Shown: positions 23,674 through 51,017, numbered from the stretch's first letter. The stretch: DNA of 64,000 bases from an uncultured bacterium (GCA_937861125.1 CALMAY010000038.1:27942-91941), one strand, 5' to 3'. Program-made: numbers and translations. The notes: generated from the letters alone by a model not told the origin.

Positions 23674-24015
23674 ATGTGCAAAACAATGTGTAAAGGGAAA
23701 TCATGTATGCTCGCCTGCGCAGCTCAATGGCTGGTGCTTGTAGGAGCGATCAACTGGGGACTTATAGGAGTTGGTTATTTTGTAGGAGGTAGTGATTGGA
23801 ATGTGGTACGTATGATTTTTGGAAGTATTGAGTGGCTTGAGGCATTGGTATATATTGTTGTTGGTGCAAGTGCTGTGGTGGCTATCGTTGGCTGTAAATG
23901 TGGCATGTGCAAAGGCGGCGCATGTGCAGGTAGTGCGTGCTGTAAATCAGCAGAAGGTGAAAAAGAAGAAGAAGGCTGTTGTGGTGGCTCATGTGGCTGT
24001 GAAGAAAAAAAATAA
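23674..24015 (+). CDS. DUF378-like small membrane protein with Cys-rich N- and C-terminal tails
   Basis: Core LVLVGAINWGLIGVGYF...ALVYIVVGASAVVAIVG resembles DUF378. Tails are MCKTMCKGKSCMLAC and CKCGMCKGGACAGSACCKSAEGEKEEEGCCGGSCGCEEKK. Exact start uncertain (ATG at 23674, 23686 or 23707). Confidence 0.55.
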   Translation: MCKTMCKGKSCMLACAAQWLVLVGAINWGLIGVGYFVGGSDWNVVRMIFGSIEWLEALVYIVVGASAVVAIVGCKCGMCKGGACAGSACCKSAEGEKEEEGCCGGSCGCEEKK

Positions 24016-24030
24016 GAGATATTTTAAAGT

Positions 24031-24061
24031 AAAAAACTCGCACAGCTAGTGCGAGTTTTTT
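24031..24061. terminator. bidirectional terminator
   Basis: AAAAACTCGCAC-agcta-GTGCGAGTTTTT. Confidence 0.75.
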
Positions 24062-24062
24062 A

Positions 24063-24512
24063 TTATGAGAGTGCTTGGATATCTTTGAGTACTTCTGTCG
24101 GGTGCTCTTCTGCTTTGACTTTGGTGTAATGTTTAAGAATATTACCTGATTCATCAATGAGAAATGATTCTCGATTGATACCATGAAAAAGTCTTCCGTA
24201 TAAACTTTTTTCTTTCCATACACCGTATGCAGCGACGATAGTTCGGTCTGTATCAGCGAGGAGGGGGAAGTTGAGATGGAATTTCTCTGCAAATTTTTTG
24301 TGTGACGCAACATCATCACAGCTAACACCGATAACCTGCACCCCTTTACCCTGTAGATCATTGAGACTGTCTCTGAATCCGCAGGCTTCTTTGGTGCATC
24401 CAGGTGTGTCGTCCTTTGGGTAGAAGTAGAGCAATACTTTCTTTCCATTGTAGTCACTGAGTGAATGGAGGGTCCCATCTTGGTCTGGGAGGGTAAAATC
24501 AGGGGCTTTCAT
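24063..24512 (-). CDS. bcp: thiol peroxidase / peroxiredoxin Bcp
   Basis: Start trimmed to MKAPDFTLPDQDG. Also VLLYFYPKDDTPGCTKEAC. Confidence 0.85.
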   Translation of the reverse strand: MKAPDFTLPDQDGTLHSLSDYNGKKVLLYFYPKDDTPGCTKEACGFRDSLNDLQGKGVQVIGVSCDDVASHKKFAEKFHLNFPLLADTDRTIVAAYGVWKEKSLYGRLFHGINRESFLIDESGNILKHYTKVKAEEHPTEVLKDIQALS

Positions 24513-24557
24513 AAAGAGGAATGATTGTGTATGATATGGATTGATTGTAACAAACAT

Positions 24558-28462: not shown

Positions 28463-28890
28463 TACGTACAGTACAAATTTGTTCGTTCATGGTAGGAGTA
28501 TATCTGATAGGGTTGTATTTTACATATATTTATCCTGCGTTTGAGTTGTTTGTTTGGATGAGTCCGCTTATGCATACGTTGGGTGGGCTTGCTACTGCAT
28601 TTACTCTTGATCAGTTCTATCGTCAATGTAGTGTTAGGTGGAAGGTGCGTATTGAACCGGTGGGCGTGTATATGGTGTACCTCATTGCAATGACGGTCTG
28701 TGTGGGGGTGGTGTGGGAGATACATGAGTATCTTCATGATGTGCTCTTTGCTAGTGTTTGGCAACCGGGTATAGGAGATACACTTCTTGATTTGGTGATG
28801 GATACGGTTGGGGCAGTCCTGTATGTACTCTTTTTCTTGACAATAGAGCCTAAAAAGATACAAAAAACAAAAGGGAGAGGTAGGGCTTGA
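28447..28890 (+). CDS. hypothetical 4-TM membrane protein
   Basis: Track ORF with four hydrophobic segments; overlaps the nfo end by 16 nt. No motif recognised. Confidence 0.45.
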   Translation: MWNQIIRTVQICSFMVGVYLIGLYFTYIYPAFELFVWMSPLMHTLGGLATAFTLDQFYRQCSVRWKVRIEPVGVYMVYLIAMTVCVGVVWEIHEYLHDVLFASVWQPGIGDTLLDLVMDTVGAVLYVLFFLTIEPKKIQKTKGRGRA

Positions 28891-28915
28891 CAGATAGAGC
28901 TGTTTTTGCTATACT
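28887..28915 (+). promoter_or_regulatory. promoter TTGACA-N17-TATACT for rpmG and tRNA-Trp
   Basis: -35 at 28887-28892 and -10 at 28910-28915. Confidence 0.65.
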
Positions 28916-28969
28916 AAGGCACATATTGATTTGATTTTCTCTGTTTAGCTTTTTAATTTTTCCACGTGT

Positions 28970-29125
28970 ATGTCACAAGATAACATGATCAAAATGGAGT
29001 GTACGACTTGCAAAATGCCTCGTTATTTCTCCACAAAAAACAAGAAAAAACTCCGCAATCGTCTCGAGCTCAGTAAATACTGCAAAGTCTGCAAAGCGCA
29101 CGTCTTGCACAAAGAGACAAAGTAA
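28970..29125 (+). CDS. rpmG: 50S ribosomal protein L33 (51 aa; below the ORF-track cutoff)
   Basis: Hand translation: [51 protein letters not shown]. It has the CxxC...CxxC and LEL.KYC pattern. Confidence 0.85.
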
Positions 29126-29133
29126 GTTACAAT

Positions 29134-29155
29134 AAAATCCCCGAAAGGGGATTTT
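29134..29155 (+). other. hairpin between rpmG and tRNA-Trp (possible partial terminator or processing signal)
   Basis: AAAATCCCC-gaaa-GGGGATTTT. Confidence 0.4.
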
Positions 29156-29184
29156 GAATATGGGCTCGTACTGAGCTCGTCGAA

Positions 29185-29258
29185 GGGCGCTTCGTATAAT
29201 GGTAGTACTACGGTCTCCAAAACCGTATGCGTAGGTTCGATTCCTACAGCGCCTGCCA
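29185..29258 (+). tRNA. tRNA-Trp (anticodon CCA), CCA encoded
   Basis: Acceptor GGGCGCT/AGCGCCT, anticodon arm ACGGT-CTCCAAA-ACCGT, T arm GTAGG-TTCGATT-CCTAC. Confidence 0.85.
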
Positions 29259-29263
29259 AAAAC

Positions 29264-29291
29264 AAAAAAGTAGCTTAGTTGCTACTTTTTT
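29264..29291 (+). terminator. terminator after tRNA-Trp
   Basis: AAAAAAGTAGC-ttagtt-GCTACTTTTTT. Confidence 0.75.
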
Positions 29292-29461
29292 GTTTTTTTG
29301 TCTGAGTATTTGTTGTGGTAGTATAAGTTATTTTTATTCTGTGGTAGGAGGATGTGTACGGACATGATTTTTGGTATATTGGATATAAAATAAGATGAAT
29401 GTAAAACTCTGTATATTTGTATAGGGTTTTTGCTACATGCACAATAAAAAGATAGGATAAG

Positions 29462-29470
29462 TTATCCACA
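29462..29470 (+). promoter_or_regulatory. perfect DnaA-box consensus TTATCCACA
   Basis: Exact 9-mer within GGATAA-G-TTATCC, about 90 bp upstream of the giant ORF. Confidence 0.4.
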
Positions 29471-29559
29471 AAAACATATTGTAAAGTATAAAACTGTGTT
29501 ATACTTCTACAGATAAATAATTTTATTATCCATCTTTGTTTTTAAGATAGCAGTTTTTT

Positions 29560-32500
29560 ATGTACACACCATTTTCTTGGTTGACTGGAGTAAACCCGAG
29601 ACATATTTTGCGCAGTACACTTGTTGTCCTGTCTTTTTTTATTGTGACAGGCGCAGTGTTGTATGCATATCAGCAGGTATTTGCCTTTTCTGGATCAGGA
29701 TCTGGTACTGCGGAAGATCCGTATATTATCATGACCTGTGAACAGCTCGCAGAAGTTGATAATGATTTAGCAGCACACTATCGTTTGGGTGATTATATTG
29801 GGTGTGGTGCTGAAAATTTTCCACTTGCTCGTGTGATGGATGGATCTGATTTGGACGCTGGGTTTGGCGGGTTTACTGGTGTGTTTGATGGAGATGGGTA
29901 TACAATTAGTTATCAAAAAAATGTACCAGCAGAAATCGATGACCAAAATTACCTCGGGTTGTTTGGGTATCTTAATGGTGCAACAATTAGAGATCTACAT
30001 ATTGTAGCTGGGTGGGAACAGGGACCTGGAGGTACTGATGTGTTGTATGGGGGAAGTTTTGTGGGTTCTCTGGCTGGAAAAGCAGTCAATACGCTGATTA
30101 TTAATGTAAGCGCATCAAATAACATCCAGAGTGCAAATACTACTGGAGGGTTGGTCGGACAGATGAACAACTCTCGTATTGTTGGAGGCTCATTTGAAGG
30201 AAGTATTGATGCCACATCACAAAGTGGTGGGTTGGTTGGTGAGGTATCTGGAAATTATGAGGGTGATTTGCCTGCTATAGAACAGTCATACACATTTGGT
30301 TCTTTTACGGCTGGGTGGGGTGTTGGTAATGTTGGAGGATTAGTTGGGTATATGACGACAGCAGAGATACTCAATTCGTATTCACAGATGGATGTAAATG
30401 CATATAACAATGTTGGTGGTTTGGTCGGAAATGCGATTGGGTCTAGTATTGTAAATGCGTATGCGTCAGGGAGTGTAACTGGAAATAACACTGTCGGTGG
30501 TTTGGTTGGAAGAGTATTTTCAAGTGGTTCGAGTATAGAAAATGCATTTGCAGCTGGTATCATTACTGGGTCTAGTTATATTGGAGGTGTGGTTGGTGGT
30601 GTAGGGGATTTTGGAGGTGATAATCCATCTTTTCTTTCTACGACAAACACGTACTGGGATGCAACGATGACTGGTATGAGTGAATGTAGTGGTTTAGCAG
30701 AAGAAACATGGGCTGGGTGTACGATGATTACACCTGGAGATCCGACGACATATTGGAAATTGGGTGGTGTTGAGCCGATGTTAACTTGGAATACTACAGA
30801 CATTTGGAATCTTGATTCCATGTCTAACTATCCTTGGTTATTTGCTTATACTGAACCTACATTTGCTAGTGGTACTGGTGTTGAAGGTGATCCATATGTT
30901 ATTACAAATTGCACACAACTTCAGTTGATGAACACGGTGCTGGATGCACATTTTGTGTTGGGAAGTGATATCGATTGTTTGGAGACAGAAGGGTGGAATG
31001 AAAATACAGCTGAGTGGGTAGATGGGGTGGTGGATGGAGAGTTGATTCCTGATAGTTACAATGATATTCCTGGTGTATATGGGGCAGTATCAAACAATGG
31101 ATACTATGGTTTTGAGCCAATTGGGTCCGACGGAGATCCGTTTACTGGCGTGTTTGATGGAGATGGATATACGATTAATGATTTGTGGATATTTCGAAAA
31201 GAACAAGATAATGTTGGTTTATTTGGCTATACTGCTGGCGCAACAATTGAAGATTTTGATTTAGTTGCAGCAGACATTGTTGGCGAGTCAAATGTGGGTG
31301 GCGTTGTAGGTACCATGGAAGATACGTCGATTTCTGATGTGACTATATTCGATAGTCATGTGCGAGCATATTTGAGTTATTACGGCGGAGGAATTGCCGG
31401 TATTATGATGGAAAATACTGGAACAAGCACTATCTCATATGTGACTATGTCTGGTGGTGGGGTGCATGGAAGTGGAAATATTATTGGTGGTTTGATTGGT
31501 AAAATGTATGATGGTATTCTCACATATGCTAATTCTTCTGCATCGGTGGATGGTGGATTTAGTATCGGTGGTGCGATTGGAGAAATGTCTACTGGTTCAG
31601 TGTCGTATGTTGATATAACGGGGTCAGTTCATTCAGATCGTACTGAAGGTGAATTTATTGCAAAATCTGGTGAAAATACAGGTGGATTTGTTGGATATAT
31701 GTATGAAGGGACTATCACTAGTTCTACTGCGAGCGGTGATGTGGAGTGTGAGGGTGGAAAGTGTGGTGGATTTATCGGATATGCTGCGAGTGGAAACGCG
31801 CTCATTACAAACTCTTCTGCCTCAGGTGATGTGACTGTTGTTGATGGGTTTTCACCGTCATACATTGGCGGATTTGCTGGGTATGTGGAAAACAGTGGAT
31901 ATAATTGGGAGGATCCGTATGTATATGGCGTTGAATGGGTAAATCTGTCTGCTGCTGGTTCTGTCTTTGCAACCTCTTCTGATTCTGTAGGTGGTTTTGC
32001 TGGGCGTGTCTACGGATATGATCTTTCTTCTGTATCTTCGACAGGTGGTGTGGTAATAGGTGATAGTTATGTCGGTGGTTTTGTTGGTGAGATATTTAAC
32101 TCCTCTGTGTCGTCGAGCACTGCTTCTTCTACTGTTACAGGTATGGATAACTATATTGGTGGCTTTGCTGGTTATTCAGGTTGTCAGAGTCGGTTTACTC
32201 GGTCACAAGCTTTTGGAGATGTGTTTGGTGCTGCTGCGGTAGGTGGTTTTTCTGGCGCAGATGGATGTGAGGGGTATGGATCGACGTTTACAGAGGTGTA
32301 TACAACAGGTGATGTGGTTGCGTCTGTAGTTGCAGCTGGAGGTTTGATCGGAGAAGCATATTTAACTACAGTAGAGCGCTCGTATGCGTTGGGAAATGTT
32401 ACTGCGACAGGAGATAATGTGGGTGGATTGATTGGACAAATGATTGGGTATGATGGGTATGAACATTCGTCTGTGACAGATTCATACGCTCGAGGGAATG

Positions 32501-34527
32501 TTGAATCAACCTCAGGGGTTCAGGTCGGTGGTTTGGTTGGGTATATTGGTGCATATACTGATATGGTCAATGTGTATGCGACAGGTGTCGCATCTGGTAC
32601 GACTGCTGTTGGAGGTCTTTATGGCGGTGGAGACGTTTCCACTGCAGCATTTTGGGATATTGAGACATCTGGTCTTTCTGCGGGGTGTGGATATGGATGT
32701 GACGACACTGCTGTAGGGACAAGCACTGAGCGTATGAAGACACAATCGATGTATACAGATGCTGGCTGGGATTTTGAAACAGTGTGGACATTTGAGGGGG
32801 CAAACATAGTAAATGATGGGTACCCAATTTTACAATTTCAAACAGTAGGAGAAGATACTGAAACATTGACTCCTGAATTACTTTCACCGGAGGATGGTTC
32901 TTCTCACGATGTAGATGCAGAGATGGATATCACTTTTGTGCTTCCTGAGACACCGTTGTCAAATAGTATTACTATTGCATTCTTACCAGAAGTGGGTGAT
33001 CCAATAGTGCTACAGTTGCGTGATGCTGCGCCTGAGGTGGAAAACACCTTTACGATTATACCAAATCAGAATCTTTCTTTGGTTGAAGAGGTGCTTTCTG
33101 CTTCGACAAGCACTATTCCAACTGGTACATATACAATATTACTCGCATACCAAGATGTATTTGGAAACCCTGTTGCTACTGATAGTGTTTCAGAAGTGTT
33201 ATTATACGAATTTCCTGAGTTAGTTATGGGTGAGACAACTGGTATCGGACAGACACAGGCGACGTTGAATGCAAGTGTTGTCGATGGTTCTGTGGAATTG
33301 TTTAGTGAGTATGCATTGTATGGATTTATCGTGAGTGAAAATTCAGATCCAACAGTTGAAAATGCGGTTGCAATACCTGGTCCTGTCGTTATCGAAGAGT
33401 TGGGTTCATATGAATGGATTTTTGGGGATGACGATGGTGAGGTGCTTGAGTGTGGTACGACGTACTATGTGCGTGCACTCGGAGTGTTGATGTATGGTGA
33501 AACTCTCTTGACGAGTGAAAATGTAGATTCGTTTACAACACTTGATTGTGATGAAGAAGAAGGAGAAGAAGAGCCACGTCCTCGTTCTGGTGGTGGGTCT
33601 TCTGTCTCTATTTCTCGTCCTCGTCCAACAGACAACACGACAGCAACTACTGGGGCACTCGTTATCAATAATGGTGATGAGACTACAACAAGTAGAACTG
33701 TTTCTTTGAAAATTAATGCAACAAATGCAGTAGAGATGGCAATCAGTAATAGTCCGCTATTTAGCGATAGTACGTATATCCCATTTACTTCTTCTGCAAA
33801 GCATACACTTAGTGCTGGTGAGGGGCAAAAAACAGTGTATGTAAAGCTTCGTTCTGCTACCGGTGGTACTCTTCTGGTTTTAGATTCGATTCAGTTGTCT
33901 AATGTGGTGAATAAAAAACCATCTGACATTGTTCCTTTAGTACTAACCACCCCAATCCCACAAAACGGCCTCCAATGCACTACTAACCTTGTTCTCACTA
34001 CTCCAGTCAAACTCGGAGCCCCCAACAATCCAAACGACGTCAAACTCCTCGAGCAGTTCCTCAATACCTATGAAGGCACTAACCTCCCAGTCAATGGAAT
34101 ATATGAAACAGCAGACTTCAACGCAGTAGTGAAGTGGCAAGAGAAATATGCCTCTGACATCCTCACTCCATGGGGACTCACCAAAGGCTCAGGATATGTC
34201 TACACCACATCTTTGAAAAAAATCAAAGAGATCCACGAAAAGAACTGTGCAACAGCAGGAACGACACCAGTGCAACCAACCACACCAGTATCAGCAAGTT
34301 GTCTCAACACACAAACAACCCTGACACAAGGTATGACAGGAGCACTCGTTACCACCGCACAAACACTCCTCCAAAAACTCAACTACTTCACTGTCACACC
34401 AACCGGCTTCTTTGGCCCAGTCACCACCGCCTCAGTCAAAGCCTTCCAAAGTGCAAACGGCATTGACCCTGTCGGCTACATCGGACCAGCAACCAGAGCC
34501 AAGCTTAATGAGTTGGGGTGTCGGTAG
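29560..34527 (+). CDS. giant (1655 aa) cell-surface protein: signal anchor, tens of GLUG-type repeats, Ig-like spacer region, two C-terminal peptidoglycan-binding domains
   Basis: N-terminal TM helix. Two modules GxG(T)xxDPY.I..C.QL.......AH..LG.DI.C. Recurring N.GGLVG...S.I.N.YA.G.V motifs ending in YWD/FWDIETSG. C-terminus GMTGALVTTAQTLLQKL..G.FGP.T...VKAFQ..NGI.P.G..GP.T is PG_binding_1-like. Confidence 0.75.
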   Translation: MYTPFSWLTGVNPRHILRSTLVVLSFFIVTGAVLYAYQQVFAFSGSGSGTAEDPYIIMTCEQLAEVDNDLAAHYRLGDYIGCGAENFPLARVMDGSDLDAGFGGFTGVFDGDGYTISYQKNVPAEIDDQNYLGLFGYLNGATIRDLHIVAGWEQGPGGTDVLYGGSFVGSLAGKAVNTLIINVSASNNIQSANTTGGLVGQMNNSRIVGGSFEGSIDATSQSGGLVGEVSGNYEGDLPAIEQSYTFGSFTAGWGVGNVGGLVGYMTTAEILNSYSQMDVNAYNNVGGLVGNAIGSSIVNAYASGSVTGNNTVGGLVGRVFSSGSSIENAFAAGIITGSSYIGGVVGGVGDFGGDNPSFLSTTNTYWDATMTGMSECSGLAEETWAGCTMITPGDPTTYWKLGGVEPMLTWNTTDIWNLDSMSNYPWLFAYTEPTFASGTGVEGDPYVITNCTQLQLMNTVLDAHFVLGSDIDCLETEGWNENTAEWVDGVVDGELIPDSYNDIPGVYGAVSNNGYYGFEPIGSDGDPFTGVFDGDGYTINDLWIFRKEQDNVGLFGYTAGATIEDFDLVAADIVGESNVGGVVGTMEDTSISDVTIFDSHVRAYLSYYGGGIAGIMMENTGTSTISYVTMSGGGVHGSGNIIGGLIGKMYDGILTYANSSASVDGGFSIGGAIGEMSTGSVSYVDITGSVHSDRTEGEFIAKSGENTGGFVGYMYEGTITSSTASGDVECEGGKCGGFIGYAASGNALITNSSASGDVTVVDGFSPSYIGGFAGYVENSGYNWEDPYVYGVEWVNLSAAGSVFATSSDSVGGFAGRVYGYDLSSVSSTGGVVIGDSYVGGFVGEIFNSSVSSSTASSTVTGMDNYIGGFAGYSGCQSRFTRSQAFGDVFGAAAVGGFSGADGCEGYGSTFTEVYTTGDVVASVVAAGGLIGEAYLTTVERSYALGNVTATGDNVGGLIGQMIGYDGYEHSSVTDSYARGNVESTSGVQVGGLVGYIGAYTDMVNVYATGVASGTTAVGGLYGGGDVSTAAFWDIETSGLSAGCGYGCDDTAVGTSTERMKTQSMYTDAGWDFETVWTFEGANIVNDGYPILQFQTVGEDTETLTPELLSPEDGSSHDVDAEMDITFVLPETPLSNSITIAFLPEVGDPIVLQLRDAAPEVENTFTIIPNQNLSLVEEVLSASTSTIPTGTYTILLAYQDVFGNPVATDSVSEVLLYEFPELVMGETTGIGQTQATLNASVVDGSVELFSEYALYGFIVSENSDPTVENAVAIPGPVVIEELGSYEWIFGDDDGEVLECGTTYYVRALGVLMYGETLLTSENVDSFTTLDCDEEEGEEEPRPRSGGGSSVSISRPRPTDNTTATTGALVINNGDETTTSRTVSLKINATNAVEMAISNSPLFSDSTYIPFTSSAKHTLSAGEGQKTVYVKLRSATGGTLLVLDSIQLSNVVNKKPSDIVPLVLTTPIPQNGLQCTTNLVLTTPVKLGAPNNPNDVKLLEQFLNTYEGTNLPVNGIYETADFNAVVKWQEKYASDILTPWGLTKGSGYVYTTSLKKIKEIHEKNCATAGTTPVQPTTPVSASCLNTQTTLTQGMTGALVTTAQTLLQKLNYFTVTPTGFFGPVTTASVKAFQSANGIDPVGYIGPATRAKLNELGCR

Positions 34528-34547
34528 AAATGTTTTTGATAAAATAC

Positions 34548-34573
34548 AAAAACAGCCTTGAAAAGCTGTTTTT
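34548..34573. terminator. bidirectional terminator
   Basis: AAAAACAGC-cttgaaaa-GCTGTTTTT lies between convergent genes. Confidence 0.75.
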
Positions 34574-34580
34574 GTTTTTA

Positions 34581-36377
34581 TTATATACGTCCATATTTTG
34601 CTTCCAAATCACCGAGCTTTTCTTGCACTCCAAACCATTGTGACTCTTTTTCTTTGAGGAGGAGCTCTACTATCTGGAGTTGCTTTGTTTTTTCAATTGA
34701 GTACTTACCGGGATGTTTGAGAAACCATTTATGAATACTATGTTGTTCTTTTTCTAGGTCAGCAACTTCTTCTTCAATATCACGTAACAACTTTTTCTGT
34801 TCTTTAATCTCCTCCTTGAGTCGTGGGCGTTCATCATCTGATGCGAGAGCTGGAATTGTTTTTTCTGGAATAGCTGGTCGTCGATTGCGACCGATGATAT
34901 CACCGAGGTGATAGACATACTCCTCGTATGAGTGGTGATAGCGTTTTACAGATCCATCATTTACCTCAATGATACCTGTGGCTATTTTTTCTACAAAGGC
35001 ACGATTGTGACTGATGAGTAATATGGTACGATTGGTTTCGTGAAGTGCTTGGGCGAGCGACTCTACTGTTTCAAAATCAAGATGGTTGGTCGGTTCATCC
35101 AGTAGTAGAACCTGATCTTTTCCAAGCATTAACCCAGCGAGACACAGGCGTGCTCTCTCACCTCCACTAAGTACTGACAAGGGTTTTTCGATGTCTCCTG
35201 CACGGAACAAAAAATTTCCAGCAATTTCAAGTACATCTTGTGTGCTTCGATGAATACTTCCGGCTCGTTCGAGATATCCAAGGACTGTATCAAACGGATT
35301 GAGCTGATCAGTCATGTGCTGAGCATAGTAGCCAATAGAAACAGTTGGGTGCCATGTGGCGGTGCCAGAGAGTGGGAGGAGGTCTTTGGCGAGTGTACGT
35401 AGGAGTGTTGTTTTGCCTTGTCCGTTGTCTCCGACAATGGCGACATGTTCACCGCGGTGGATTTCAAACGTGATATCACTTGCCACAGGTGACTCTTTGG
35501 TATATCCCATACTGAGTTCTTCTGTTCGCAGTACAATTCCTTTTTTATTTTCACAATTTGGGACGTGTATACGGGTGGTGTGTAGTGGTGCTTCGATTTC
35601 AATTGTTTTGAGTTTTTCAAGATATTTCATCTTTGATTGTGCTTGTGTTGCTTTGCTTGCTTTGGCACGGAAACGGTCGATAAATTCTTGGACATGAGCA
35701 CGTTCTTTCTCAACTTTTTTATTATATTTTTTTTGCATTTCAAGTTGCGCTTTTTTGTATTCTAGATATGCATCAATTTGTCCGGGGTATGAATACGCTC
35801 TACCACGCTCAATATCAAGTGTCTCGGTACAGACATCACGCAAGAATGCGCGATCGTGTGAGATGAGGAGAAAGCTGCCAGTGTATTGTTTCAAAAAATC
35901 TCCTAAAAGCAAGATAGTAGAGAGGTCGAGAAAGTTTGTTGGCTCGTCGAGTAAGAGGACGTTGGGATCTTGGAGCAGCATGCCAACAAGTTTGATACGC
36001 ATACGATACCCCCCAGAGAGGTTTTTGAGTTGGGAGTTGAGATGTGTTTCGTTCAGTTCAAATTTATGTGCGAGTTTGGCCGCCTGCCATGATTCTTTTT
36101 TAGATGTGCGTATTAGATAGGAGAGGGCTGTTTCACTCAGATCCATGTCGTCGTGCTGTGCGATGTGTCCGAGTCGAGCACTGTTGTGAAGTTGTACTGT
36201 CCCGCTATCAGCTTCTTCTTGTCCGAGAATGATGCGAAAGAGGGTTGATTTTCCTGCACCATTTCTCCCGATTACACCGATTTTCTGACGTTCAGAGACG
36301 GTAAAGGTCGCTCCCATGAGGATAGGGCGTTCGCCATAGCTTTTTTGAATGTCATTGACGGCGAGAAGAAGTGCCAT
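34581..36377 (-). CDS. ABC-F family ATPase (two ABC domains, no TM)
   Basis: Start trimmed to MALLLAVNDIQKSYG. Walker A GRNGAGKST and GDNGQGKTT; signatures LSGGYRMR and LSGGERAR; C-terminal coiled coil. Confidence 0.85.
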   Translation of the reverse strand: MALLLAVNDIQKSYGERPILMGATFTVSERQKIGVIGRNGAGKSTLFRIILGQEEADSGTVQLHNSARLGHIAQHDDMDLSETALSYLIRTSKKESWQAAKLAHKFELNETHLNSQLKNLSGGYRMRIKLVGMLLQDPNVLLLDEPTNFLDLSTILLLGDFLKQYTGSFLLISHDRAFLRDVCTETLDIERGRAYSYPGQIDAYLEYKKAQLEMQKKYNKKVEKERAHVQEFIDRFRAKASKATQAQSKMKYLEKLKTIEIEAPLHTTRIHVPNCENKKGIVLRTEELSMGYTKESPVASDITFEIHRGEHVAIVGDNGQGKTTLLRTLAKDLLPLSGTATWHPTVSIGYYAQHMTDQLNPFDTVLGYLERAGSIHRSTQDVLEIAGNFLFRAGDIEKPLSVLSGGERARLCLAGLMLGKDQVLLLDEPTNHLDFETVESLAQALHETNRTILLISHNRAFVEKIATGIIEVNDGSVKRYHHSYEEYVYHLGDIIGRNRRPAIPEKTIPALASDDERPRLKEEIKEQKKLLRDIEEEVADLEKEQHSIHKWFLKHPGKYSIEKTKQLQIVELLLKEKESQWFGVQEKLGDLEAKYGRI

Positions 36378-36426
36378 ATTTTTGCCTATATTAACAGAAA
36401 AAGAGTGTTTCGTAAAGATTACTATG

Positions 36427-36435
36427 TTATCCACA
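36427..36435 (+). promoter_or_regulatory. perfect DnaA-box consensus TTATCCACA
   Basis: Exact 9-mer in the divergent intergenic region between the ABC-F gene and the 36504 ORF. Confidence 0.4.
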
Positions 36436-49082: not shown

Positions 49083-51017
49083 ATGCCAAAAGTATTAGGA
49101 ATTGACCTCGGAACAACAAACAGTTGTATGGCCATCATCGAGGGTGGTCAGCCAAAAGTCCTCGAAAACAAAGAAGGAGATCGTACAACACCAAGTATGA
49201 TTGCACAGAGTAAGACAGGTGAACGATTGGTCGGAAAACTCGCCAAACGTCAGGCAGTGACTAATCCAAAAAACACGCTTTACTCAGTCAAACGTCTCAT
49301 CGGTCGCCGTAGTGGTGACAAAGAGGTGACATACGTCAAGGAACATGCGCCATACGAAGTGGTCGCAGACGGTGATCGCGTCAAAGTCAAACTCGGTGAT
49401 GAGGCCAAGACTGCACCAGAAATTTCAGCCATGGTGTTGCAGAAACTCAAAGCTGATGCAGAAGAACGTTTGGGTGAAAAAATTACTCAGGCTGTTATTA
49501 CTGTGCCAGCGTACTTTGACGACTCACAGCGTCAGGCAACCAAAGATGCAGGTGCAATTGCAGGGCTCGAAGTGCTTCGTATTATCAACGAGCCAACTGC
49601 TGCAGCCTTTGCTTACGGATTTGACAAAACTGGTGAGCAAAAGATTTTGGTCTATGATCTAGGTGGTGGTACATTTGATGTCTCAGTGCTTGAAATCTCA
49701 CATGACAAAGAAACGAACCAATCAACGGTAGAAGTACTCGCCACAAATGGTGATACACACCTCGGAGGAGATGACTTTGATAAAGTCTTGATTCAATATA
49801 TCCTCGATACATTCAAAAAAGATGAAGGAGTAGATCTCAGTAAAGACCCACTCTCACTTCAGCGCATCAAAGAAGCTGCTGAGAAGGCAAAAATTGAGCT
49901 CTCAACAGCACAGGAAACTGAAATCAACGAACCATTTATCACATCAACTGCGGACGGTCCAAAACATCTCAACATCAAACTCTCTCGTGCAAAACTCGAA
50001 GAGTTGGTGATGGATTTGGTGGACAAGACGATGGTGCCAGTGAAAAAAGCACTTGAGGACTCAGGAGTAGACAAGGGTGCGATTAACGAAATCGTGATGG
50101 TCGGTGGTATGACTCGCATGCCACTCGTGCTCAAAAAAGTAGAAGAGTTCTTTGGTAAAAAACCAAACGTCAGTGTGAACCCAGATGAGGTGGTGGCAAT
50201 TGGTGCTGCAATTCAGGCTGGACAGCTCCAGGGTGATCTTGGTAAAGAAATTCTCTTGCTTGATGTCACACCACTTTCATTTGGTATTGAAACTATGGGT
50301 GGAGTATGTACCAAGATTATCGAGCGAAATACCACAATCCCAACAAGTAAATCACAAGTGTTTAGTACAGCAGCAGACAATCAGCCAAGTGTCGAGATCA
50401 AGGTGCTCCAGGGTGAGCGTCAGATGGCTGCGGACAACAAGATGCTTGGGGTATTTCACCTCGATGGTATCCCTATGGCGCCACGTGGCGTGCCACAGAT
50501 TGAAGTGACCTTTGATATCGATGCCAACGGTATTCTCAATGTAAAAGCAAAGGATAAAGGCACAAACAAAGAACAATCAATCCGTATCGAAGCATCATCA
50601 GGTCTCAGTAAAGAAGAGATTGAGCGTATGAAAAAAGATGCAGAGATGCATGCAGATGAGGACAAGAAAAAAGGTGAGCTGGTAGAAGCACGAAATATCG
50701 CTGACACGATGATCTATACATCTGAAAAAATGATGAAAGATATCGCTGAGAAAAACATTGCTATTACTGATGATGAGAAAAAAGCGGTCGAGGATGCTAT
50801 CACAAAGCTCAAAGAAGTGAAAGATAAAGATGATCTCGAAGCGATCAAGGCTGCGAGTGAGGTGCTCAGTAAAGCTGGCCAAGCAGTCGGACAAAAAATG
50901 TACGCTGCGGAGCAGGGAGCAAAGGGCGGTGATCAGGGTTCAGGAAATCAACCAAACGGTGACTCAAAAAATGAAGGTCCTGTTGAAGGGGAAGTGGTGG
51001 ATGATAAAAAAGAATAA
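49083..51017 (+). CDS. dnaK: chaperone DnaK (Hsp70)
   Basis: [27 protein letters not shown] and a full-length Hsp70 pattern. Confidence 0.97.

Follow-up and report, generated by a model that had tools for sequence, protein, structure and literature searches.

Why does a single open reading frame change its codon usage abruptly near its 3′ end? This question is raised by a giant surface-protein gene (nt 29560-34527, + strand; 1655 aa) in a 64,000-nt stretch of DNA from an uncultured bacterium, which was analyzed at its full length and is referred to here as the window. A preliminary description had interpreted the last ~575 bp of the gene as a module recently grafted from a donor genome that differs in codon bias. 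In the following, W designates the giant gene or its protein, and L- and P-numbers designate contigs and proteins of its relatives.

Layout of the giant gene

The protein contains GLUG repeats (PF07581; 92.7 bits, Pfam cut-off 20.5) and a C-terminal PG_binding_1 domain, and 1829 GLUG-type homologues were recorded for it. The GLUG-repeat N-terminal body (aa 1-1094; nt 29560-32841, + strand) represents a divergent allele of gene2 of the relatives. It was collinear with aa 48-1139 of L005 gene2 at 49.6% identity, and aa 350-1103 of W shared 54% identity with the upstream ORF of L010 (L010 2-2683; aa 1-752). Third positions in this body had values typical of + strand genes (GC3 skew ~+0.4). The middle segment (aa 1099-1340; nt 32854-33579, + strand) was common to proteins of the P0147 (L012) type according to blastp mapping, in which W 1099-1654 matched P0147 363-934 with 52.6% identity. 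Its place is taken by a ~1100-aa beta-helix/MAM region in L005 gene2 and L010, whose alignments to W picked up again no earlier than aa 1341-1353 of W.

The next part, a pre-junction domain (aa 1341-1459; nt 33580-33936, + strand), shared 56% aa identity with its counterpart in L005 gene2 and could be aligned with L010 and P0147 too; a weak CARDB-like match (E=0.038) was its sole hit. Third positions of this domain were still G/T-rich, and the 150 codons preceding the switch had a GC3 skew of +0.26. Behind a junction at nt 33937-33954 (+ strand), where the composition and codon change point coincides with the onset of high identity to L010, lies a C/A-rich C-terminal cassette of 195 codons (nt 33940-34524, + strand), a putative anchor. 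It is followed by a bidirectional intrinsic-terminator hairpin (nt 34546-34575; inverted repeat I1), terminator-like on both strands, which stands between the giant gene and a convergent ABC-F ATPase gene (nt 34581-36434, - strand; two ABC_tran domains and ABC_tran_Xtn), the conserved downstream flank, which was inherited together with the cassette.

Composition and codon usage switch at the same codon

The abrupt compositional switch was confirmed, and the base counts given for it earlier proved exact (22 C and 8 G at nt 33961-34020 and 21 C and 9 G at nt 34321-34380, in comparison to 14 G and 8 C at nt 30361-30420). At nt 33937-33940, the + strand GC skew flipped from ~+0.4 to -0.4 and the AT skew from -0.1 to +0.4, with synonymous usage changing at the same codon. 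For nt 33940-34515 as a whole, the GC skew was -0.32 and the AT skew +0.30, against +0.31 and -0.12 for nt 29560-33939; in 200-nt windows, the GC skew dropped from values of +0.3 to +0.5 down to -0.2 to -0.43. A scan of the 64 kb in 1269 windows of 576 nt (mean GC skew +0.153, sd 0.107, minimum -0.33) placed the 12 lowest values in windows that all overlapped the cassette segment, the most negative stretch of the 64 kb. In the upstream part, the GC3 skew was +0.40, the AT3 skew -0.32 and GC3 0.29; the corresponding values in the cassette were -0.60, +0.39 and 0.49, with a C3 of 0.39. The change point was assigned to codon 1460 (nt 33940) by a synonymous-only log-likelihood ratio and to nt 33937 by a third-base change-point test.

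Such a switch could be an artefact, arising either as a by-product of T/P/N/Q-rich content or from a chimeric metagenome assembly that joined two organisms at ~33940. The module does contain much Thr, Pro, Gln and Asn, its boundary is very sharp, and the window appears to derive from a metagenome, its giant gene being known from metagenome assembly contigs only. When the amino-acid sequence of the cassette was kept and its synonymous codons were redrawn 3000 times according to the usage of + strand genes, the GC3 skew was +0.29 ± 0.11 and C3 was 0.12 ± 0.02, and none of the 3000 runs reached the observed -0.60 and 0.39. The skew therefore did not return to normal once the amino-acid composition was corrected for, and this simulation together with the synonymous-only statistics excluded composition as the cause. 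As for the assembly, the same protein and DNA of the giant gene were present, identical, on 11 contigs from several assemblies: the 1261 nt spanning the junction (nt 33440-34700) recurred without a mismatch in L001 and L002, and L003 carried the complete gene in identical form. Homologous junctions were furthermore found in independent contigs. In L010 and L005, the cassette continues the reading frame of homologous pre-junction domains and is followed by the same ABC-F gene, and the P0147 protein has the same 'TTPIPxNGLQCTT' junction. On these contig comparisons, an assembly chimera was rejected, and an artefact of either kind is extremely improbable.

The cassette follows the codon dialect of opposite-strand genes

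Codon usage in the window was found to depend on the strand. The GC3 skew ranged from +0.1 to +0.6 in + strand genes and from -0.1 to -0.54 in - strand genes, and a codon log-likelihood ratio separated the two classes cleanly. The statement that every other gene of the window has more G than C on its coding strand failed for 16 of the 17 - strand genes, whose coding-strand skew was -0.01 to -0.30. The GC3 skew of the - strand gene for AhpC was as low as -0.53 here and reached -0.71 in L005.

The cassette matches the native - strand dialect best, in an extreme form. Its fit was -1.50 bits per codon under the - gene model, in comparison to -1.70 under uniform usage and -1.85 under the + model, so that the best fit came from the genome's own dialect, which does not support the proposed donor genome of another codon bias. 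The sign of its skew was opposite to that of both flanks, and its codon usage was that of the genes which this genome encodes on the opposite strand. Host-specific codon choices (CCA, CTC and TCA/AGT) were retained, and the preference for CCA over CCC and for TCA/AGT over TCC/AGC follows the host pattern, not a generic C-rich dialect. Simulation with - gene usage gave a GC3 skew of -0.34 ± 0.10 and a C3 of 0.26 ± 0.03, both exceeded by the cassette with -0.60 and 0.39 (p ~0.003 or lower). The AT3 skew, C3 and log-likelihood ratio of the cassette lay just past the most extreme real 195-codon window of the - strand genes.

This extremity is what would be expected of a foreign graft, that is, of a module from an organism with a preference for C-ending codons that is not yet ameliorated. 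C3, AT3 skew and log-likelihood ratio fall outside both strand classes of the 64-kb sample, GC3 is 0.49 against 0.29-0.47 in host genes, and the module is promiscuous, being joined to many protein bodies. However, the host - strand model was 0.2 bits per codon better than uniform usage, and the choices of CCA and of TCA/AGT were host-like.

A recombination junction bordering a resident cassette

The history of the junction was followed in syntenic relatives. W and L010 shared 93.2% nt identity from nt 33955 through the ABC-F gene to the end of the L010 contig, and upstream of ~33954 their similarity was weak (~54% at the protein level). Within the similar part, dS between W and L010 was 0.297 for the cassette and 0.279 for ABC-F, and the 53-nt intergenic region including the terminator was 100% identical. 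In L005, a more distant syntenic locus with flanks 80-86% identical to the window, the cassette was found at the same site; the slot contains two giant genes there, both with the cassette, and one in W. Cassette aa identities to the copies in L010, L004, L005 gene1, L005 gene2 and L011 were 85-95%. W does not have the SQPDIAIP linker that is common to the four other copies of alignment A2, and it rejoins them at ~33954. Because the cassette is collinear with ABC-F in L010 at equal dS and is also present in L005, it is the resident part, and what diverged as an allele is the N-terminal body. From these alignments it is very likely that the switch is a recombination breakpoint and the cassette an old resident piece, with the latest exchange affecting the part upstream of nt ~33954. 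The preliminary description was thus right in seeing a discrete module with its own history, whose 5′ edge is supported as a genuine recombination junction; a recent graft at this site was not supported.

For a foreign origin, these comparisons are unfavorable as well, since the same site is occupied in the sister and in the more distant syntenic genome with a divergence equal to that of the flanks. Without exception, the nearest homologues of the cassette formed the C-terminal ends of surface proteins in related uncultivated (metagenome) bacteria, and none of the viral contigs encoded a relative, which led us to reject a phage origin. Neither mobility genes nor flanking repeats were found around the cassette. 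Overall, a foreign graft is improbable.

Other mobile arrangements were considered within the window. No second cassette copy or donor was found in the 64 kb, where no part of the segment exceeding 20 nt was repeated. A DGR or donor-cassette template was rejected, there being no template repeat in the 64 kb and the cassette being highly conserved, not variable. An invertible or shufflon-type cassette was likewise rejected, as bounding inverted repeats were absent and the terminator and the ABC-F gene lie downstream; inverted repeats near the cassette were the terminator hairpin and otherwise short imperfect pairs (12-19 nt, 74-92% complementary).

Domain structure of the cassette

An AlphaFold model of the cassette (mean pLDDT 88.6) comprised two three-helix units. 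The second is a canonical PG_binding_1 domain (PF01471; aa 1594-1649; nt 34339-34506, + strand), which exceeded the Pfam gathering threshold of 23 bits with scores of 58.9 for the full-length protein and 65.4 for the isolated cassette, with helices predicted at cassette residues 135-146, 160-172 and 183-193. For the first unit (nt 33994-34257, + strand), helices were predicted at cassette residues 31-45, 57-74 and 89-106 with pLDDT above 90. Its PG_binding_1 score of 14.6 bits (E=0.038) is under the cut-off of 23, and this divergent unit is therefore named PG_binding_1-like and not a family member; it is conserved on its own in many surface proteins. The two units are joined by a Thr/Pro-rich linker (nt 34258-34338, + strand) with low pLDDT at cassette residues 108-115, the length of which differs between cassette copies. 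Foldseek matched the PG-binding domains of CtpB, the SleB N-terminal domain, 1lbu and phiKZ gp144 (probability 1.00; rmsd 0.6-3.0 Å over 70-78 columns), with an output that does not distinguish which of the two units was aligned.

The model and these matches indicate that the cassette consists of two putative peptidoglycan-binding three-helix domains, and the earlier view that the segment is real coding DNA for such domains was upheld by the above-threshold PF01471 match and the fold model. The same module closes proteins with unlike bodies, including GLUG, Big_5, beta-helix/MAM, LamG and PA14 types. The cassette is a putative non-covalent cell-wall tether of a hypervariable giant surface protein. 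In six copies, no conserved antisense or alternative-frame ORF was present in the cassette, all other frames containing variable stops, which ruled out an overlapping gene as the cause of its composition.

The C/A shift is confined to one clade

Scans of metagenomes and genomes with the module yielded three loci alone, which were distant, and the nearest named contigs belonged to Candidatus Peribacteria and Paceibacteria MAGs. Long module-bearing proteins were missed by a word-indexed protein search and recovered by an exhaustive search. The C/A shift was confined to a single clade (W, L010, L004, L011, L005 gene1, L005 gene2, L012 and L013), where it was shared in varying degree by six close and two more distant copies. 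It was absent from L014, L016 and L017 (55-61% identity) and from L006 (~40%), which matched their own genomic backgrounds, so that a bias intrinsic to the domain family was rejected. In L005 gene2, the cassette (86% aa identity) had nearly lost the bias (GC3 skew -0.03). L008 also carries a module-bearing gene, but its same-strand neighbours were C-rich as well, and it was withdrawn as evidence of deep persistence. Like the restriction to one clade, this case speaks for a historical and not a functional signal. Module copies of a single genome, those of L005 gene1 and gene2, clustered together, indicating exchange among paralogues. An NJ tree suggested that the C/A-rich clade nests inside the host lineage's own modules.

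Synonymous changes after the W/L010 split were counted as 15 from C/A to G/T and 3 in the reverse direction, a ratio that is suggestive and not decisive because the ABC-F control revealed a polarisation artefact of ~2:1 toward common-to-rare changes. Private synonymous changes of L005 gene2 were 18 toward G/T and 1 toward C/A, and the corresponding counts were 2 and 6 in W (older changes) and 4 and 3 in L004. Synonymous conservation of the cassette was not above that of the flanking genes. Between W and L005, flanking genes retained ~25-45% of their synonymous identity, and dS between L010 and L005 was 1.3-1.6. On a back-of-envelope decay estimate, a passive relic older than the L010/L005 split is expected to have lost most of its bias. 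The bias was still strong in W and L010 and nearly erased in L005 gene2, their positional orthologue. Its retention in W and L010 against this estimate calls for an extra assumption, namely that the W/L010 lineage received it anew at a later time or that it is maintained in some form.

Maintenance would mean that selection or a local mutational regime actively preserves the C/A-rich, G/U-poor composition. The candidates are an unstructured or Rho-loading 3′ mRNA, a DNA recombination anchor, and a preference for codons with Watson-Crick pairing to G34/U34 tRNAs. To varying extents, the bias occurs in eight copies whose gene and genome surroundings differ, and it persists in W, L010 and L004 despite the turnover of most synonymous sites. 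Simple neutral decay from a W/L005 ancestor cannot, by estimate, yield a GC3 skew of -0.59, and the private changes of W and L004 lack a skew toward G/T. DnaK, moreover, shows translational selection toward C- and A-ending codons in this genome. In contrast, modules at 40-61% identity and that of L005 gene2 function without the bias, between W and L010 the cassette has the same dS as the gene next to it, its copies have not retained more synonymous identity than the flanks have, and the recent changes ran 15:3 away from C/A. The absence of a conserved antisense or alternative-frame ORF speaks against maintenance as well. The same mRNA encodes an N-terminal body that was already resident when L010 and L005 split and is not C-rich, and neither are highly conserved + strand housekeeping genes; expression level or protein conservation therefore cannot explain the pattern. 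The C3 of the cassette is ~2x that of DnaK, and the cassette uses TTC, GAC, GGC, ACC and GCC, which DnaK avoids. Translational selection was rejected on these grounds. Mutation from convergent transcription with ABC-F was rejected too, as L004 and L005 gene1 are C-rich despite co-directional downstream genes. Active maintenance, through these candidates or otherwise, is unlikely. It is a long shot that a maintained nucleotide property travels with the cassette and aids the swapping or expression of giant surface-protein bodies in these uncultivated bacteria.

A possible origin on the other replication strand

We instead favor a history in which a surface-protein slot would have a constant 3′ side, made up of the cassette and its downstream flank, the upstream body being swapped through homologous recombination. 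The switch at nt 33937-33954 would then be the border between a divergent N-terminal allele and the constant part. The host replichore is under strong strand-specific mutation pressure that makes the + strand rich in G and T, and the cassette DNA may descend from a copy equilibrated on the other replication strand. The presumed donor would be an inverted-orientation paralogue or allele, possibly a well-expressed one, copied onto the ends of leading-strand surface-protein genes via recombination or gene conversion, and the copies would now be drifting back to G/T at different speeds. Speaking against this history are the lack of an opposite-strand donor copy in the 64-kb window, a bias stronger than in the average - strand gene and the retention of that bias in W and L010. 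An opposite-strand origin of the cassette DNA has a little less than an even chance of being correct; for the explanation as a whole, which combines the constant cassette, the breakpoint, the wall tether and this origin, we see the chances as evenly balanced.

The locus suggests that a codon-usage break within a gene can place a recombination breakpoint to ~20 bases. It also advises caution, as such a break need not mean foreign DNA where mutation bias is strand-specific: the odd part may be an old resident that uses the dialect of opposite-strand genes, and the seemingly normal part may be the most recently exchanged. The slot described here in an uncultivated lineage, with its hypervariable giant surface protein and a constant, putative double peptidoglycan-binding anchor, may be of use in annotating such proteins and in studying how these bacteria vary their surfaces.

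Comparison with known systems

Strand-specific codon usage under strong replication skew has been described in Borrelia burgdorferi, Chlamydia muridarum and Lawsonia intracellularis (PMC2671203, PMC2089121; review PMC3269016). A related case is the atypical skew of DNA after a change of strand. As in these bacteria, the window contains two codon classes by strand, with G/T and C/A third positions, and the cassette belongs to the opposite class. However, the discordant unit is 585 bp within one ORF here and neither an entire gene nor an inverted block, and unlike strand-switched blocks it has normal-sign DNA on both sides and is somewhat more extreme than the sampled opposite-strand genes. The model of Lawrence and Ochman, which PMC2671203 also mentions, reportedly describes the amelioration of laterally acquired DNA. 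The graded loss of atypical composition across the copies, with changes of 18:1 in L005 gene2, is similar to such amelioration, whereas the likely donor would be the other strand of the same lineage and not another species. W and L010 also differ from L005 gene2 far more in degree than a simple amelioration clock would allow.

In polymorphic toxin and related systems, C-terminal modules are exchanged with cassettes by recombination (PMC3482391). The giant protein resembles these in its length, its modular build and the sharp recombination junction near its C-terminus. The polarity is reversed, with a constant C-terminal module and a variable N-terminal body, and a toxin domain, an immunity gene and a downstream orphan cassette are all absent here. 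Further parallels come from constant anchors with exchangeable bodies. S-layer/cell-wall-protein cassette switching in Clostridioides difficile combines a constant wall-anchoring end with an exchangeable body, and mosaic choline-binding or LysM/SLH-anchored proteins likewise have a constant anchor and a variable body. Unlike in C. difficile-type loci, the putative anchor here consists of C-terminal tandem PG_binding_1-type bundles on GLUG/beta-helix giants, and no expression or silent-copy system was seen. Like those loci, the slot has conserved flanks and an anchoring module around a hypervariable body, and identity to the sister falls from 93% nt to ~54% aa exactly at the module boundary.

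A synonymous switch within the giant gene

The giant open reading frame at 29560-34527 (+ strand, 1655 aa) changes composition abruptly at the start of its last 195 codons. The + strand of 33940-34515 had a GC skew of -0.32 and an AT skew of +0.30, compared with +0.31 and -0.12 in the 4.4 kb of the frame that come before it, and in 200-nt windows the skew dropped at the junction from +0.3 to +0.5 down to -0.2 to -0.43 inside ~100 nt. With the 64 kb divided into 1269 windows, each 576 nt long, GC skew averaged +0.153 (sd 0.107), and the twelve most negative windows all overlapped this segment. The switch is located at synonymous sites: upstream and in the segment, respectively, GC3 skew was +0.40 and -0.60, AT3 skew was -0.32 and +0.39, and GC3 was 0.29 and 0.49. 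The cumulative peak of a log-likelihood ratio based on relative synonymous codon frequencies only placed the change point at codon 1460 (nt 33940), and a third-base test placed it at nt 33937. The abrupt switch near 33940 noticed in the preliminary description, whose three base counts by eye were all exact on recount, is thus real and highly significant. When the segment's own protein sequence was kept and synonymous codons were redrawn from + strand gene usage, the GC3 skew was +0.29 ± 0.11 (observed, -0.60) and C3 was 0.12 ± 0.02 (observed, 0.39). The observed values were never approached, so amino-acid content was ruled out as the cause, and after this correction the segment still lay far outside + strand gene usage.

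The segment follows opposite-strand codon usage

Across 1-64000 the + strand was G>C and mostly T>A irrespective of gene orientation, with no change in skew sign and a monotonically climbing cumulative skew. On their own coding strand, + strand genes had GC3 skews of +0.1 to +0.6 and - strand genes of -0.1 to -0.54, and a codon log-likelihood ratio split the two classes cleanly (+0.16 ± 0.07 vs -0.18 ± 0.06). Strand-specific codon usage is known in Lawsonia, Chlamydia and similar genomes (PMC2671203, PMC2089121); the window shares two strand-based codon classes with this Borrelia/Chlamydia/Lawsonia type, here in an uncultivated bacterium. Contrary to the claim that all other genes are G>C when read on the coding strand, 16 of the 17 - strand genes were C>G, with skews down to -0.30, and the segment therefore resembles an opposite-strand gene sitting on the + strand.

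Of the codon models compared, the one built from - strand genes of the window fitted the segment best (-1.50 log2-likelihood per codon), followed by AhpC (- strand, from the window and the syntenic contig L005; -1.53), DnaK (+ strand; -1.63), uniform synonymous usage (-1.70) and + strand genes (-1.85). Host idiosyncrasies were retained, namely Leu CTC, Pro CCA over CCC, and Ser TCA/AGT over TCC/AGC. The segment exceeded an average - strand gene, for which simulation gave a GC3 skew of -0.34 ± 0.10 and C3 of 0.26 ± 0.03, and its AT3 skew, C3 and log-likelihood ratio slightly surpassed those of any real 195-codon window from the - strand genes. The best reading of this composition is an incompletely ameliorated form of the codon dialect that the lineage itself uses on the opposite strand.

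In DnaK (49083-51017), the GC3 skew was 0.00 and the AT3 skew +0.07, compared with about +0.34 and -0.15 in other + strand genes; this suggests that translational selection in this genome prefers codons ending in C or A, the ones that form Watson-Crick pairs with G34/U34 tRNAs. Such selection, with its pull in the same direction, was weighed as the source of the segment's bias and rejected: module C3 was about twice that of DnaK, the module used TTC, GAC, GGC, ACC and GCC, which DnaK avoids, and the N-terminal body, carried on the same mRNA and long resident in L005 and in the sister contig L010, was not C-rich. The presumably well-expressed - strand gene AhpC had third positions among the most C-rich (GC3 skew -0.53 in the window, -0.71 in L005). 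Two overlapping frames were listed at 23882-24557 (-); of these, AhpC/peroxiredoxin at 24063-24557 is the genuine gene, and the 23882-24478 frame had a non-coding-like first-position composition.

The switch marks a recombination junction

The exact giant protein occurred on 11 contigs from several assemblies. The giant-gene DNA was identical in the three contigs examined (L001, L002 and L003), and the junction region 33440-34700 was matched exactly in L001 and L002; L003 ends shortly past the gene. L010, a Logan contig from a sister genome, matched the window at 93.2% identity over a stretch that begins at 33955, spans the terminator and the ATPase gene ABC-F (34581-36434, - strand) and runs to the contig end, with no comparable DNA-level similarity upstream of 33955. 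A bidirectional intrinsic-terminator hairpin (34546-34575) separates the convergent giant gene and ABC-F, and the 53-nt spacer holding it was 100% identical between the window and L010, while flanking synonymous sites differed by ~25%. L005, a 127-kb JGI contig, covers the corresponding syntenic locus in a related genome, with flanks 80-86% identical to the window and gene order kept; two giant genes (1352 and 2571 aa) occupy its slot, and both end in the cassette.

At the protein level, residues 1-1094 of the window's giant protein were collinear with L005 gene2 (49.6%) and residues 350-1103 with the upstream frame of L010 (54%). The window protein lacks the ~1100-aa beta-helix/MAM region of L005 gene2 and L010 and has instead a ~240-aa segment common to P0147, a related surface protein on L012, with realignment from residue ~1341. 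In a five-way alignment, it departs from the SQPDIAIP linker common to the others and aligns with them again from about nt 33954. The switch thus falls, within ~20 nt, at the point where a highly divergent allele of the surface-protein body gives way to a conserved block of cassette, terminator and ABC-F. It marks where recombination joined the parts of a mosaic, hypervariable surface-protein gene, whose C-terminal double peptidoglycan-binding anchor is the conserved, resident cassette. Between the window and L010, dS in the cassette (0.297) was close to that in ABC-F (0.279). The graft proposed earlier is real, but its sense is reversed: at this locus it was the normal-looking upstream part that was exchanged most recently.

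The hypervariable slot lies between DUF2238 (with tRNA-Trp at 29185-29258) and ABC-F, at 28890-34580 in the window, 9520-21858 in L005 and 1-6575 in L010, and is occupied by one 1655-aa gene, two giant genes and a beta-helix/MAM type, respectively. Its flanks were 80-93% identical, and the bodies either could not be aligned or shared ~50% protein identity.

Convergent-transcription effects fail as an explanation because the genes downstream of L004 (a gene1-type fragment) and L005 gene1 are co-directional, and a diversity-generating retroelement (DGR), shufflon or inversion fails because no repeat or partner was found in the 64 kb. A phage origin was unsupported. What is seen here is a clear-cut instance of processes already known, namely mutation bias that differs by strand, amelioration and the exchange of surface-protein cassettes, and not a new kind of element.

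Persistence of the bias across cassette copies

In an exhaustive profile search, many otherwise unrelated giant proteins proved to end in the double module. Compared with the upstream part of its own gene, module GC3 skew was -0.59 in the window (upstream, +0.39), -0.55 in L010 (+0.26), -0.34 in L013 (-0.06), -0.29 in L005 gene1 (+0.18), -0.27 in L011 (+0.03), -0.15 in L012 (+0.03) and -0.03 in L005 gene2 (+0.12). The value for L004 was -0.52; this copy has no long in-frame upstream part, and its upstream Big_5 region had an overall GC skew of +0.2 to +0.36. More distant modules gave +0.37 in L016 (60% aa identity; same-strand neighbours +0.14 to +0.36, own upstream +0.01), +0.04 in L014 (61%; neighbours -0.11 to +0.17, own upstream -0.06), -0.14 in L017 (55%; own upstream -0.11) and +0.38 in L006 (40%; own upstream -0.06), the last a shift toward G, in the opposite direction. 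L008 carries a module-bearing gene on a C-rich strand and was dropped as an anomaly because its same-strand neighbours are C-rich too. In a neighbour-joining tree all shifted copies formed one clade, within which the two L005 copies paired together, pointing to exchange between paralogues.

The bias could be a fading relic undergoing amelioration. It is dispensable, being absent from L005 gene2 at 86% protein identity and from more distant modules. Private synonymous changes of L005 gene2 numbered 18 CA->GT vs 1 GT->CA, and polarised changes after the split of the window and L010 ran 15 vs 3 with CA->GT in the majority; however, an ABC-F control indicated that outgroup polarisation by itself gives ~2:1 toward common-to-rare changes, and older private changes of the window copy ran in the wrong direction (2 vs 6). 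Cassette dS equalled that of the neighbouring gene, synonymous identity beyond composition was 0.12-0.40 among copies (0.20-0.25 for the window against others) and 0.24-0.46 in flanking genes, and no overlapping frame was conserved in the cassette. Against a simple relic, flanking genes of the window and L005 kept just ~25-45% of synonymous identity, with dS of 1.3-1.6 between L010 and L005. By a rough estimate, about half of the synonymous sites were redrawn per lineage, and no ancestor would leave the window at -0.59; L005 gene2, the positional orthologue, was nearly fully ameliorated. These opposing points call for either late re-introduction or some form of maintenance. Under re-introduction, C/A-rich cassette DNA would have re-entered the window/L010 lineage after the L005 split, via conversion from an other-strand copy. 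Since all direct tests for constraint on the cassette were negative, re-introduction is favoured over maintenance, but not proven. The persistence of the bias in the window, L010 and L004, against its erasure in L005 gene2, is the sole part that could lead somewhere unexpected.

In L004, a stop at 600-620 parts Big_5 from the linker and cassette in the same frame ('GNDMT*EFSFSFTT'); sequencing error, pseudogene status or a truly split gene could account for it. Module frames of the distant relatives L008 (4652-4948) and L007 (890-1177) have in-frame stops at conserved positions, for instance 'WGLKK*TGYVY' where homologues have Gly, which suggests candidate UGA-as-Gly lineages (code 25) or else pseudogenes.

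Domains encoded by the cassette

The view that the segment encodes peptidoglycan-binding domains held at the level of domain type, the binding role being predicted. Pfam assigned PG_binding_1 confidently to residues 1594-1649, and the first half of the cassette scored 14.6 bits for the same model, under threshold. An AlphaFold model (23 homologues; mean pLDDT 88.6) comprised two three-helix units with a disordered Thr/Pro linker between them, and its Foldseek matches were peptidoglycan-binding domains of CtpB, SleB, the 1lbu DD-peptidase and phage endolysins. The cassette is thus a putative non-covalent cell-wall anchor. Since no Pfam model scored above threshold for the first three-helix unit (33964-34260; 'LEQFLNTYE...VNGIY...WQEKY...GTGYVY'), it may deserve a separate family definition. 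By itself, this unit also ends Ig-like surface proteins, and it is found fused to a sortase as well (P0006, P0008, P0010, P0012 and P0014).
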